Sequence record: NC_070982.1
DNA length: 64,000 nucleotides
Strand: one strand, 5' to 3'
Source of the DNA: Escherichia phage vB_EcoP-101114UKE3
The notes below the pieces were generated by a model. It was not told where the DNA came from and ran no database searches. It saw only the letters and a list, made by a program, of their open reading frames with translations. Below, in pieces: positions 3,726-8,985 of this stretch. A program made the position numbers and the translations under genes. The first letter of the stretch is position 1, and every line of letters begins with the position of its first letter.

Positions 3726-5969
3726 ATGGCTAAGAAGAAATTTAGTGAAGATGTTTTGGATGAATTACGCGTTGACCTTCAACGTCGATTCAATTATGCT
3801 CAAGGTTATGTAGACTTAGCTGTAAAAGGCTATGCTCGTGAGGCTTGGGAATACTTCTATGGGAACCTTCCTGCTCCAGTTACTGCTGGTAGCTCTAGTT
3901 GGGTAGACCGTACAGTATGGGAATCAGTGAATGGTACGCTCCAAGATATCATTAACGTGTTCTGTTCTGGTGACGAAGCGGTAACTTTCGTAGCCGATAA
4001 CCAAGAAGATAGTGATGCTGCTGACGTAGCCACTAAACTTGTCAACCAAATTTTGTTACGTGATAATCCGGGATACAATATTATCTCTTCAGCGGCACAA
4101 GAGTGTCTGGTTACACGTAACTCTTTTATTAAATATTATTGGGATGAACAAACTTCTACCCAAACAGAAGAAGCAGAGGGTGTTCCTCCGGAAGCTTTGG
4201 CTGCATATGTCCAAGGTTTAGAAGCTGGTGGGCTTCAAGATTTAGAAATCTTTACCACTGACAACGAAGATGGTACAGTGGATGTTAAAGTAACTTACAA
4301 ACAAACAGTAAAACGCGTTAAAGTAGAATATGTTCCTTCAGAACAGATTTTTGTTGACGAACATGCTACCTCTTTTGCAGATGCTCAGTATTTCTGTCAT
4401 CGCACACGTAAATCTAAAGAAGATCTGGTTGCTATGGGCTTCCCTAAAGATGAAATTGAAGCTTTTAATGACTGGACTGATACAATGGACACCACTCAAT
4501 CTACTGTTGCATGGTCACGTACTGACTGGCGTCAGGATATAGATTCAGATATCGGTGTAGACACTGATGATATCGCTTCTATGGTTTGGGTTTACGAGCA
4601 TTACATCCGTACTGGTGTACTGGATAAGAATAAAGAAGCAAAACTCTATCAAGTTATTCAAGCAGGTGAGCATATTCTCAGTTGTGAAGAAGTAACTAGC
4701 ATTCCTTTTGTAACATTCTGCCCTTATCCTATTCCGGGTTCATTCTATGGACAATCTGTTTATGATATCACCAAAGATATTCAGGATTTGCGTACCGCTT
4801 TGGTTCGTGGTTATATCGATAACGTAAACAATGCTAACTATGGTCGATATAAGGCGCTTGTAGGCGCGTATGACCGTCGTTCTTTGCTAGACAACCGTCC
4901 GGGCGGTGTAGTAGAAATGGAGCGTCAGGATGCGATTGATCTCTTCCCTTACCACAATCTACCTCAGGGTATTGATGGCTTACTAGGAATGTCAGATGAG
5001 TTGAAAGAGACTCGTACTGGTGTTACTAAGCTTGGTATGGGCATTAACCCTGATGTGTTTAAGAATGATAACGCATATGCAACTGTTGGATTGATGATGA
5101 ATGCTGCTCAGAACCGTCTCCGTATGGTCTGTCGTAACATTGCTCACAACGGTATGGTTGAATTGATGCGTGGTATTTATAATTTAGTCCGAGAAAATGG
5201 TGAGGTTCCTTTACAAGTACAAACCCCTCGTGGTATGGTTCAGGTTCATCCTAAACAACTGCCTGCTCGTCACAATCTACAAGTTGTTGTAGCTATCTCT
5301 CCTAGCGAGAAATCAGAACGTGCACAGAAACTCATTAGTCTGAAGCAATTAATTGCTGCTGATGCTCAGTTAGCACCTCTGTTTACTCTGGAGCAAGATC
5401 GTTACATGACTGCACAGATCTTCGAGTTGATGGGAATTAAAGACACTCACAAATACTTAATGCCTCTGGAACAGTATCAACCGCCAGAACCTTCTCCGAT
5501 GGAAATCCTCCAGCTTGAGATGACTAAAGCACAGGTTGAGAACGTACAGGCTTCTTCTCAGAAGATGATTGCTGATGCATTCGACCAGCGTGAACGTACT
5601 ACGTTTGAACAGCAGAAAGCTGCGGACGAGTTCAGCTTACGTCAAGAAGAACTGCAATTTAAGCAAGAGAATGCTGCTGATCAGATGACTTTGGAGAATC
5701 GTAAAGAAGACAACAGTGCTACACTTGAACAGGCTAAGCACAAGTTGGCTCTGCTCCAGCAACAGGTCCGTCAGTATGAATCTGTACTTAAAGAATTGCA
5801 GATGACTCTTAACCATCAGGTTGATGTTGAGAAAGTTGCAAATCAGGCTAAAATTCAAGATAAGACTTTGGAACTCCAAAAGAAAGAAGCAAATGAAACT
5901 AAGAAAGAACAGCAAAGTTCAATCAAAGATTCACGGATTCCTAACCGTCGTCTTGGTAGTAGAAAATAA
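3726..5969 (+). CDS. Putative portal protein (747 aa)
   Basis: Large protein immediately after the large terminase; coiled-coil Q/E/K-rich C-terminus; RBS GAGGGAGAG. Confidence 0.65.
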   Translation: MAKKKFSEDVLDELRVDLQRRFNYAQGYVDLAVKGYAREAWEYFYGNLPAPVTAGSSSWVDRTVWESVNGTLQDIINVFCSGDEAVTFVADNQEDSDAADVATKLVNQILLRDNPGYNIISSAAQECLVTRNSFIKYYWDEQTSTQTEEAEGVPPEALAAYVQGLEAGGLQDLEIFTTDNEDGTVDVKVTYKQTVKRVKVEYVPSEQIFVDEHATSFADAQYFCHRTRKSKEDLVAMGFPKDEIEAFNDWTDTMDTTQSTVAWSRTDWRQDIDSDIGVDTDDIASMVWVYEHYIRTGVLDKNKEAKLYQVIQAGEHILSCEEVTSIPFVTFCPYPIPGSFYGQSVYDITKDIQDLRTALVRGYIDNVNNANYGRYKALVGAYDRRSLLDNRPGGVVEMERQDAIDLFPYHNLPQGIDGLLGMSDELKETRTGVTKLGMGINPDVFKNDNAYATVGLMMNAAQNRLRMVCRNIAHNGMVELMRGIYNLVRENGEVPLQVQTPRGMVQVHPKQLPARHNLQVVVAISPSEKSERAQKLISLKQLIAADAQLAPLFTLEQDRYMTAQIFELMGIKDTHKYLMPLEQYQPPEPSPMEILQLEMTKAQVENVQASSQKMIADAFDQRERTTFEQQKAADEFSLRQEELQFKQENAADQMTLENRKEDNSATLEQAKHKLALLQQQVRQYESVLKELQMTLNHQVDVEKVANQAKIQDKTLELQKKEANETKKEQQSSIKDSRIPNRRLGSRK

Positions 5970-5978
5970 GGATACTGA

Positions 5979-6215
5979 ATGAATACAAGACAGCAATTCA
6001 ATAAAGAGCACGCCGCCGCTTTGGCGGCTCTCAATCACAACGGCATTCTTGACGCAGCATTAGAGGCATTAAAAGAAACCCTCATGAGAGATATTGTATT
6101 AACCGAGGCTCATGAGAATAAGAAACGCGAAGAGTGTTATCAAAAGTATAAAATGGTTGGTAGCTTAAAAGAGGTCATAAAAGCTGCTATCAATAATGCA
6201 GGAGATAATTCCTAA
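5979..6215 (+). CDS. Hypothetical protein (78 aa)
   Basis: ORF between portal and scaffold genes. Confidence 0.45.
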   Translation: MNTRQQFNKEHAAALAALNHNGILDAALEALKETLMRDIVLTEAHENKKREECYQKYKMVGSLKEVIKAAINNAGDNS

Positions 6216-7297: not shown

Positions 7298-7337
7298 TCG
7301 ACAAATTTATTTTTAATAGTATAGGAGCTAATATAAC

Positions 7338-8393
7338 ATGGCAAATCCAACTTTATTTGTATCTTACGACCAGAATGGTAAAAAACTTTCTTTTGCTAAC
7401 TGGATTTCTGTCCTGTCTCCGCAAGACACTCCGTTTGTGTCTATGACTGGTAAAGAGTCTATCAATCAGACTATTTTCAGCTGGCAGACCGATGCTCTGG
7501 CGAGCGTAGATGCTAACAACGCCCACGTCGAAGGCTCTCGTGCTGAAGACGGCGAAATGAAACCGACTGTAATTAAGTCCAACGTTACTCAGATCCTGCG
7601 TAAAGTTGTTCGTGTTTCTGATACTGCTAACACCACCGCTAACTACGGTCGTGGTCGTGAACTGATGTATCAGCTGGAGAAGAAAGGTAAAGAGATTAAA
7701 CGTGACCTCGAGAAAATCTTGCTGTCCGGTCAGGCTCGTACCGATATTCTGGCAGACCAGTATCTGACCAACTCTGCAACTGATCCTGCTGTTGTAGGTC
7801 AGAATGATACCTCAGCTGCTCGTAAGACTGGTGCTTTCCAGTTCCTGTGTGCACACAATGGTGTTGCTGGTGGTGTTGTTAAGAAAGAAGATGGTCCTGC
7901 TGACCCGGATACTGGTGCAGTAACTGTTAAAGTTGCACAGAATGCTTCTAACCCGACTACTAACATCGGTTTTGATGAAGCTGATATCTTTGATATGACT
8001 CTGCAATTATATACCGCTGGTTCTGAAGCAGACATCATCATGATTAACCCTGCTCACGCTAGCATCTTTGCTAAGCTTCAGGAAAACTCTGTTGGCTCTC
8101 GTCAGCGTATCTTTGAGAACACCAAACAGTTCATCTATGAAGTTAACAGCATCACTGACCCGCTGGGCCAGAGCTATAAAATCATCGTTAACCGTTGGAT
8201 GCCTGCTGATGCAGTTTACTTCTTCCGCAGCTCTGACTGGACTCAGATGGTTCTTCGTGCTCCGAAACGTACTGAACTGGCGAAAGATGGTTCTTACGAG
8301 AAATGGATGATCGAAATGGAAGTTGGTCTGCGTCACCGCAACCCGTATGCCTCCGGCGTTCTGTTCACTGCTGCGGGAAAGGTGGCGGCGTAA
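7338..8393 (+). CDS. Major capsid protein, short form (351 aa)
   Basis: Strong RBS TAGGAG; position after scaffold; followed by an in-register -1 ORF and a strong terminator. Confidence 0.65.
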   Translation: MANPTLFVSYDQNGKKLSFANWISVLSPQDTPFVSMTGKESINQTIFSWQTDALASVDANNAHVEGSRAEDGEMKPTVIKSNVTQILRKVVRVSDTANTTANYGRGRELMYQLEKKGKEIKRDLEKILLSGQARTDILADQYLTNSATDPAVVGQNDTSAARKTGAFQFLCAHNGVAGGVVKKEDGPADPDTGAVTVKVAQNASNPTTNIGFDEADIFDMTLQLYTAGSEADIIMINPAHASIFAKLQENSVGSRQRIFENTKQFIYEVNSITDPLGQSYKIIVNRWMPADAVYFFRSSDWTQMVLRAPKRTELAKDGSYEKWMIEMEVGLRHRNPYASGVLFTAAGKVAA

Positions 8394-8917
8394 CAGTAGA
8401 CAGTGTGACTGTTAGCCCTGCGTCTTTAGCAAGTCTAGAGACAGGGGCTACTCGGCAGTTCACTGCAAGCGCGGAGAAAAGTGATGGTTCTACCGAAACA
8501 ACTGGCTTTACTTGGTCAGTGACAGGAGGTGGTTCTATCACTCAGTCGGGTTTGTATACTGCTCCGAGTGCGTCTCAATCCACTGATGTATCCATTACTG
8601 CAACTTTAGAAGGTGTTTCTGGAACAGCAACCATTTCTGAAATTGTTGCTCCTGCTCCTACTATTGTAGCTAAGGGTCCAATTACGGGTAAAACTGGTGG
8701 TTCCTCCACTAATTTCACTACCATGTTTACTGTAACTAATTCTGCTGCTGCGGATTACACGTTTGTTGTAACTCCTACAGAAGCTGGTACAGTAAGTGCA
8801 GCTGGTGCGTTAACCTTAGATGCTGCTGCAAGTGGCGAAGTTACTGTTCAAGCAAGTTTGACAGCTGATCCGTCCATCAATGCAACATGCACTTTTACTG
8901 GTGTAACACCTGCTTAA
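7338..8917 (+). CDS. Major capsid protein, long form: predicted -1 frameshift fusion adding about 178 aa with Ig-like (BIG2-like) domains
   Basis: The -1 frame after the heptamer reads GKGGGVTVDSVTVSPASL...; no separate RBS seen for the downstream ORF 8303..8917. Confidence 0.5.
8375..8381 (+). other. Candidate -1 programmed frameshift slippery heptamer G_GGA_AAG
   Basis: X_XXY_YYZ heptamer in the capsid frame 10 nt before its TAA; the -1 frame stays open to 8917. Confidence 0.5.
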
Positions 8918-8924
8918 AACTAGA

Positions 8925-8950
8925 CCCTGCCTTCGGGCGGGGTTTTTTCG
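8925..8950 (+). terminator. Rho-independent terminator with UUCG loop
   Basis: CCCTGCC-TTCG-GGCGGGG followed by TTTTTT. Confidence 0.6.
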
Positions 8951-8976
8951 TTTTAAGACCTATACAAGCCAGTGTG

Positions 8977-8985
8977 TAATGTATA
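8977..8985 (+). promoter_or_regulatory. Candidate phage promoter element TAATGTATA
   Basis: Exact TAATGTATA 34 nt upstream of the ATG at 9019, just after the capsid terminator. Confidence 0.35.

Follow-up and report, generated by a model that had tools for sequence, protein, structure and literature searches.

The genome of Escherichia phage vB_EcoP-101114UKE3 was analyzed as a stretch of 64,000 nucleotides (NC_070982.1; hereafter “the window”). Its major capsid protein gene ends shortly after a G_GGA_AAG heptamer, and the −1 reading frame continues past the capsid stop codon into sequence for Ig-like domains. This arrangement raises the question of how the Ig-like sequence is translated: as an extension of the capsid protein, by ribosomes that slip back one base, or as a protein of its own. 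A first-pass annotation, made from the sequence alone, had proposed a −1 programmed ribosomal frameshift. We put the probability that G_GGA_AAG directs such a frameshift and yields a minor capsid–Ig fusion at roughly 90%, a reading supported both by in silico criteria and by published cases in close relatives. As the capsid frameshift is already known in this phage group, the earlier call is correct, yet not new.

Capsid gene, slip site, and Ig-like extension

The features of the locus are listed in Table 1. The capsid ORF matched the Pfam family SU10_MCP (E = 2.6e-79) and, over its full length, the solved major head protein of phage SU10 (PDB 7z45; E = 5e-222). The AGGAG motif that precedes it is the only ribosome-binding site for both the short and the long form of the capsid protein. 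An intrinsic terminator was found only 3′ of the Ig-coding sequence, and none between that sequence and the capsid stop codon. The region 7338–8917 is 100% identical to that of Escherichia phage vB_EcoP-101114BS3 (MZ234015, genus Kuravirus), and 93% to 99% identical to those of SU7, IME267, phiEco32, SU10, and dozens more phages. The source of the window is itself a phiEco32/SU10-like E. coli phage belonging to Kuravirus.

Table 1. Coordinates of the features at the capsid–Ig locus (positions in the window).
Feature	Position	Strand	Basis and remarks
Capsid Shine-Dalgarno, AGGAG	7323..7327	+	Anti-SD duplex −6.2 kcal/mol, 9 nt before ATG 7338
SU10-type major capsid protein gene (0 frame)	7338..8393	+	ORF; 351 aa, 38.6 kDa, HK97 fold
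Slippery heptamer G_GGA_AAG (X_XXY_YYZ phase)	8375..8381	+	Sequence; conservation in relatives
Predicted −1 frame extension, 178 codons plus stop (8915–8917)	8381..8917	+	ORF 8303..8917; starts with Gly-rich linker GGGV
Short-form TAA stop	8391..8393	+	Sequence; 0-frame tail past the slip site only Val-Ala-Ala
Short hairpin TAACAGT/ACTGTTA, 7 bp, 10-nt loop	8391..8414	+	Sequence; 9 nt past the heptamer
Ig-like domain 1, Big_2 type	8393..8638	+	Extension residues ~5–86; Pfam Big_2 6–83; AlphaFold2 strands E6–E85; Foldseek LigA
Larger conserved stem-loop, 18 bp	8407..8460	+	RNAalifold consensus; stems 8407–8412/8455–8460, 8413–8419/8444–8450, 8422–8426/8438–8442
Ig-like domain 2	8654..8911	+	Extension residues ~92–177; AlphaFold2 strands E94–E176; tandem Ig structure matches
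Intrinsic terminator, end of capsid transcription unit	8922..8955	+	10-bp stem (6 G-C pairs), then T-run

The heptamer lies in the phase that tandem slippage calls for, as the first-pass annotation had stated. A GCG codon ends at position 8375, and the 0 frame reads GCG GGA AAG GTG GCG GCG TAA, leaving nine bases between the heptamer and the stop codon. After a slip, the same bases would be read as GGG AAA GGT GGC GGC GTA ACA, and so forth. Codon count and translation both agree with the earlier estimate of about 178 further codons and 526 residues: the predicted long form consists of 348 + 178 aa and has a mass of 55.5 kDa, compared with the 38.6 kDa of the short one. The motif GGGAAAG is not enriched in the window, where it was found 5 times against 8 expected, so that its bare occurrence is meaningless. 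Only the copy at 8375 combines the right phase with a position near the end of a long ORF and a long open −1 frame; the other four are out of phase with every long ORF.

The predicted junction reads ...AAGK/GGGVTVDS..., that is, ...FTAAGK/GGGVTVDSVTVSP..., and a junction peptide such as TAAGKGGGVTVDSVTVSPASL would be specific to the fusion. The lysine at the slip site is also the exact point of trypsin cleavage. The tryptic peptide GGGVTVDSVTVSPASLASLETGATR that follows it is incompatible with a start at GTG 8405, and would be the same whether it arose by frameshifting or from a start at ATG 8303.

The extension has an Ig-like fold. An AlphaFold2 model built with 19 sequences contained two β-sandwich domains at a mean pLDDT of 96.5, with values of 95 to 98 in every 10-residue block of domain 2. 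Its top fold match in the PDB was the tandem Big domains of Leptospira LigA (E = 1e-10), and further matches included the phi29 capsid protein, T5 pb6, and RB49 Hoc (E = 2e-4). Among predicted viral structures (BFVD), the top matches were an 894-aa “major capsid protein” of phage Paul and a 585-aa “major head protein” of Salmonella phage 7-11. At the sequence level, the match of the isolated extension to Pfam Big_2 (PF02368) over residues 6–83 was marginal (24.8 bits against a cutoff of 22.8), with no single stretch above the threshold alone, and Big_2 was not listed in a Pfam scan of the full 526-aa long form. For the BIG2-type assignment of the first-pass annotation, the Pfam score is marginal and the fold-level match to LigA strong.

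Frame constraint in relatives and alternative routes to the Ig-like domains

We compared 16 distinct Kuravirus-like sequences, taken from a phage collection and from IMG/VR. The heptamer was unchanged in all 16, with a gap of 9 or 12 nt to the capsid stop codon, while the length of the linker and the third positions on either side of the heptamer varied. The −1 extension was open in every one of these sequences and ranged from 174 to 540 codons, always with an identical entry site. In the more distant phages Privateer and Cronobacter phage 009 (capsid 58% identical), GGGAAAG is directly followed by TAA, and the extension spans 168 codons.

Judged from the alignment, variation follows the capsid frame as far as the heptamer and the −1 frame after it. 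Upstream of it, variable sites amounted to 8, 1, and 48 per 100 at positions 1, 2, and 3 of the capsid frame, while downstream they amounted to 48, 34, and 80 per 96 at the respective positions of the −1 frame. The first change after the heptamer, T/C at 8383, is silent in the −1 frame (Gly) and replaces Val by Ala in the 0 frame.

The Ig-like ORF could alternatively be translated alone, from ATG 8303 or GTG 8405, to give a free decoration protein of 170 to 204 aa that is bound non-covalently to the capsid. A separate Ig-like ORF is indeed annotated in most GenBank records, the SU10 cryo-EM paper discusses whether gp10 might be a minor capsid protein that is only loosely attached (PMC9509320), and GTG 8405, 12 nt past the capsid stop, is near enough to TAA for translational coupling, possibly by termination-reinitiation. 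Neither codon has a Shine-Dalgarno sequence, however. For ATG 8303, the best anti-SD duplex reached −3.2 kcal/mol at 10 nt, and for GTG 8405 −4.8 kcal/mol at 15 nt, a non-functional spacing, whereas 5 of the 6 flanking genes that were checked have AGGAG-type duplexes of −6.2 to −9.9 kcal/mol at 4 to 9 nt (the sixth, a small ORF at 5979, reached only −3.8 kcal/mol). This agrees with the first-pass annotation, which had the downstream ORF without a ribosome-binding site of its own, and sets the in silico signals against the internal ATG at 8303 that it had named as the competing start. GTG 8405 is replaced by GTA or ATA in most relatives. No start codon is conserved, and gene callers have placed the starts of homologues at at least 3 different sites (MTVSP..., MASL..., and MSDGS..., the last two of which lie inside the first domain). 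The part of the ORF from 8303 to 8380 is out-of-frame capsid sequence, and variation there tracks the capsid frame; the Gly-rich linker and the first β-strand, both encoded ahead of 8405, show conservation of the −1 frame. Relatives with in-frame capsid–Ig fusions point in the same direction. Together, these observations make independent initiation of the Ig-like ORF unlikely, and we assign a free decoration protein only a small share of the probability.

Smaller still is the chance that the signal is vestigial or conditionally dispensable, with a long form that is negligible in amount or is not incorporated, as is apparently the case in the sequenced SU10 stock. The deposited SU10 sequence (KM044272) carries a 1-nt insertion (ACACTGTCTACTG, against ACAGTGTGACTG in relatives), through which the −1 frame stops after 7 codons and the Ig-coding sequence is left in the 0 frame behind TAA...TAG. 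The insertion was also remarked on by the authors of the YF01 paper (PMC9965538). The cryo-EM capsid of SU10 showed no Ig density, and gp10 was treated as a separate protein (PMC9509320). The premature stop and the missing density imply that laboratory plaques can form without the long form, which seems to be dispensable under these conditions. Against a vestigial signal, the ORF is intact in the window, and is open in relatives behind the same invariant heptamer, with third positions as the most variable ones. Apart from the insertion, the SU10 Ig-coding sequence is intact as well, which points to an insertion that is either very recent or an artifact of sequencing. Finally, the frame could be changed in the RNA, by slippage of RNA polymerase rather than of the ribosome. 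Some phage and IS genes use transcriptional slippage, which depends on long homopolymers, as a rule of at least about 9 A or T. We found no specific support for it at this locus. The runs at the slip site are just GGG and AAA, 3 nt each, within a textbook tandem-slippage heptamer in the correct phase; we rejected transcriptional slippage at 8375–8381 because of these short runs, and consider it hardly credible.

With −1 programmed frameshifting as the preferred reading, ribosomes would initiate at the sole ribosome-binding site of the capsid gene and read up to GGA-AAG (8376–8381). In a small share of passages, tRNA-Gly in the P site and tRNA-Lys in the A site would move back by one base onto GGG-AAA. 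Reading would then proceed in the −1 frame through the Gly-rich linker and the two Ig-like domains, up to the stop codon at 8915–8917. The outcome would be a minor 526-aa capsid protein beside the major 351-aa form. Since the HK97-fold body is common to both, the long form is expected to co-assemble into the prolate head. The Ig-like domains presumably lie on the outer head surface, where they probably mediate weak binding to carbohydrates of the host cell or of mucus.

RNA structures downstream of the slip site

The first-pass annotation had also pointed to a short hairpin after the heptamer. Its core arms, AACAGT (8392–8397) and ACTGTT (8408–8413), are exact complements, and the stem extends to 7 bp. 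The hairpin is invariant in all relatives, and carries no covariation information for that reason. Local folds at this site were no more stable than shuffled sequence (z −1.3). Its arms encode V-T-V twice, the first of them overlapping the stop codon, and the spacer between heptamer and hairpin measures 9 or 12 nt according to the relative. The hairpin therefore exists as described, but its invariance, its z-score, and its variable spacing do not bear out a role as stimulator. No validated stimulatory structure was found at the canonical spacing of 5 to 9 nt.

A different stem, which encloses the slip site, was proposed in the SU10 genome paper (CTGCTGC GGGAAAG GCGGCGG; PMC4281155). In the window, this stem has a folding energy of −11.4 kcal/mol (z −1.3). 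We rejected it as a stimulator for two reasons: conservation is lacking in its 3′ arm, which falls within the Gly linker, a stretch prone to indels, and the stem would be melted by a ribosome positioned on the slip site.

Further downstream, the consensus fold of the relatives contained a larger stem-loop at 8407–8460. In an alignment of 11 sequences, 97% of its cells were paired, and 4 pairs showed compensatory changes; pair 8425/8439, for example, occurs as U-A, G-C, and A-U. The covariation score was above those of all 500 shuffles and of all slid controls, in a sample of few sequences that are related to one another. Nowhere else in the 1.6-kb alignment of the capsid gene plus Ig-coding sequence were consensus folding energies as low as in the two overlapping 70-nt windows that contain the hairpin. 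Selection at the nucleotide level is also suggested by the third positions of the −1 frame: within the same 73 nt, 5 of the 14 in the stem varied, compared with all 10 of the unpaired ones (p = 0.002), and in the rest of the Ig ORF 138 of 146 varied. A limit of this result is that the variability of the stem sites resembles that of third positions in the capsid gene (48/100).

The larger hairpin begins 25 to 28 nt past the heptamer, which is too distant for a canonical stimulator. A scan of the region against Rfam returned no family, its sole hit (E = 2.1) being on the wrong strand, and we found no description of the structure in the literature examined. A metagenome scan for the heptamer together with GCGTAACAGT yielded 40 stretches, of which 30 were chance matches and 10 were Kuravirus hits that added almost no diversity for the covariation test; a scan of viral contigs gave no loci beyond those already in the comparison set.

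We regard the larger hairpin as a lead rather than a finding, and it may be new. It is conceivable, although we would sooner bet against it, that 8391–8460, with the 7-bp hairpin and the partly overlapping 18-bp hairpin, forms a conserved RNA element that is under nucleotide-level selection and tunes the efficiency of frameshifting. Such an element could thereby control how many subunits of each head bear Ig-like domains, and would do so from 25 to 28 nt away, an unusually large distance. Alternatively, the two hairpins could be competing folds. If true, the downstream structure would offer a handle on how the ratio of short to long form is set.

Published cases and comparison with known systems

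The frameshift has been published for SU10, YF01, and Privateer, and the finding as such is therefore already known. The SU10 genome paper reported a “potential ribosomal slippage (GGGAAAG)” through which the Ig-like CDS10 is fused onto the head protein, “as in phage phiEco32” (PMC4281155), and the YF01 paper described the same event across the Kuravirus-like group (PMC9965538). For Privateer, two capsid bands were seen on gels, and the minor form was detected by mass spectrometry (PMC7881722). For phiEco32 itself, the frameshift is attributed second-hand, by two of these three papers and by a note in the GenBank record of Paul that cites PMID 18294652.

That the long form is present in virions we take from this literature on close relatives. 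Direct proof of it in Kuraviruses is thinner than the citations suggest. In the mass spectrometry table for SU10, gp9 is listed with 78.1% coverage and 23 peptides, and “gp9+10” with 50.29% and 22 peptides (PMC4281155). By simple arithmetic, these values correspond to about 275 and about 265 residues, respectively, so the SU10 “alternative form” could rest wholly on shared peptides, which leaves the fusion unproven.

In practice, the value of the frameshift lies mainly in annotation. A joined CDS is annotated in the GenBank records of Paul, YF01, and Privateer. In MZ234015, whose sequence is identical in this region, no frameshift is annotated, and a separate “hypothetical protein” starts from a GTG that matches position 8405 of the window. 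Most related records contain a separate ORF too, named “Ig domain containing protein”, so that the long form is split in most Kuravirus records into this ORF and a “major head protein”. In these split records, the start codon of the Ig ORF is an arbitrary choice, and in some of them it truncates the first domain. The useful outputs of this analysis are a corrected annotation, a caution on the SU10 evidence, and a candidate downstream RNA element.

How many Ig-bearing subunits the prolate head carries, and what their ligand is, are questions already posed in the literature. The Kuravirus ES17 has been explored for gut decolonization and binds mucin; this binding was ascribed to the tail fiber, and Ig-like domains of the capsid were not considered (PMC7885116). 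As Kuraviruses like ES17 are explored for this use and bind mucin, the question of the Ig ligand has some relevance.

The closest known systems are the long isoforms of other Kuraviruses (phiEco32 gp11/gp12, SU10 CDS9+10, Paul CPT_Paul_010, and YF01 gp8). These belong to the same genus, with capsid proteins that are 92% to 100% identical, the identical heptamer at the same position, and homologous Ig-like extensions that are 60% to 96% identical. They differ in the length of the extension, which comprises two domains and 178 aa here, whereas Paul, YF01, and Bas88 have extensions of up to about 540 aa. Proteus phage Privateer (Grimontviridae) shares GGGAAAG and a −1 extension of about 168 codons behind its more divergent capsid gene; it differs in that the heptamer abuts TAA and the downstream sequence is unrelated.

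Among more distant systems, the G/GT frameshift of phage lambda uses the identical heptamer G_GGA_AAG, and works without elaborate downstream structure. By analogy with this heptamer, the efficiency at the Kuravirus site may be a few percent. The 10A/10B pair of T7, to which the first-pass annotation had compared the locus, has the heptamer G_GUU_UUC and an extension of about 50 aa. What T7 and T3 share with the mechanism proposed here is a podovirus capsid gene in which −1 frameshifting close to the 3′ end gives rise to a longer, less abundant capsid protein; the analogy is one of strategy only. For comparison, the YF01 paper quotes about 3.5% slippage for lambda G/GT, which differs in gene class and in the role of the fusion product, and about 10% for T3/T7 gene 10 (PMC9965538).

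Other phages combine an HK97-fold capsid protein with a C-terminal Big_2 domain in one frame, without recoding, as in the second capsid gene of Salmonella phages 7-11 and SE131 and in phi29 gp8. In SE131, which is annotated with the same tandem arrangement of major head protein genes as 7-11, the product of the second gene (gp028, 586 aa) contains SU10_MCP and Big_2 in a single frame, which makes covalent capsid–Ig fusion a functional architecture in this lineage. The second capsid gene of GAP52 has an in-frame C-terminal extension with a weak, partial match to Big_2. The ratio of long to short form is given by two paralogous genes in 7-11, SE131, GAP52, and APT65, whereas in phi29 the domain is present on every subunit. 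Ig-like domains on the capsid surface, the position expected for those described here, are likewise known from T4 Hoc and the bacteriophage-adherence-to-mucus model. Hoc, in contrast, is a separate decoration protein, and binding by the Kuravirus domains is putative only.

Fixed slip site, variable Ig module

The -1 extension of the Kuravirus capsid gene ranges in length from 174 to 540 codons (L025, L027 and L029-L032 are among the loci), with one invariant site of entry throughout. It follows that the recoding signal has remained fixed during exchange or expansion of the Ig module. Downstream of this site lies a hairpin (see table), in which synonymous variation is suppressed in the stems and compensatory changes occur, with the pair 8425/8439 present as U-A, G-C or A-U in the Kuravirus comparison. 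The lowest consensus folding energies of the 1.6-kb alignment were found in two overlapping 70-nt windows containing this hairpin. Rfam holds no entry for it, and no description was found in the literature searched.

Coordinates of the hairpin and of capsid loci in related phages (numbering of each locus)
Feature	Locus	Coordinates	Remark
18-bp hairpin	window	8407-8460	downstream of slip site; kept across Kuraviruses
-1 ORF directly 3' of capsid stop	L010-L013	~4400-4470	Lahexavirus-like phages
-1 ORF directly 3' of capsid stop	L019	3900-3970	Lahexavirus-like; Aeromonas phage LAh_8
Tandem capsid paralogues	L018	1985-4761	SE131
Tandem capsid paralogues	L021	2992-5129	GAP52
Tandem capsid paralogues	L022	1069-5263	APT65

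The extension in Kuravirus records

When scanned by itself, the 178-aa extension (window 8381-8914) matched Pfam Big_2 with 24.8 bits; a Pfam scan of the whole 526-aa long form did not list this match. In MZ234015, the record of vB_EcoP-101114BS3, a 30-aa "hypothetical protein" is annotated at window 8887-8979, across the intrinsic terminator and the 3' end of the Ig ORF, and is probably a spurious gene call.

The deposited sequence of SU10 (KM044272) carries a 1-nt insertion (L003, locus 1541-1590), by which the -1 frame is stopped after 7 codons. Its Ig-coding sequence, intact apart from this insertion, thereby comes to lie beyond two stop codons and in the 0 frame. The mass spectrometry table for SU10 gives coverages of 78.1% for gp9, the head protein, and 50.29% for gp9+10, figures that are explainable without any Ig-specific peptide. 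ES17 (H126), another Kuravirus, has the same capsid-Ig arrangement, with 93% identity over window 8381-8917. This phage binds mucin and heparan sulfate; the study that describes it (PMC7885116) ascribed the binding to the tail fibre and did not take the Ig-like domains of the capsid into account.

Capsid extensions in related phages

In the Lahexavirus-like phages (L010-L013 and L019), no canonical heptamer is present at the capsid end, and no start codon precedes the domain in the -1 ORF, which in L010 was confirmed to encode two Big_2 domains (E 1.5e-34). The sequence at this site is CTG AAG GTA AAG GCG TAA, i.e., G_GTA_AAG, and in L010-L012 a 6-bp GC-rich hairpin begins 6 nt 3' of the AAG; a non-canonical A_AAG slip may operate here.

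Related prolate podophages (SE131, GAP52, L020, APT65 and L015) carry 2 to 4 tandem capsid-gene paralogues, one of which has an in-frame C-terminal extension in at least SE131, GAP52 and APT65. In L015, an IMG/VR phage with four paralogues, A_AAA_AAG lies in phase 3 nt before the stop of one of them (4394-4431), followed by a -1 extension of just 40 codons. Paralogues with an in-frame extension are an alternative to recoding for supplying short and long capsid subunits.
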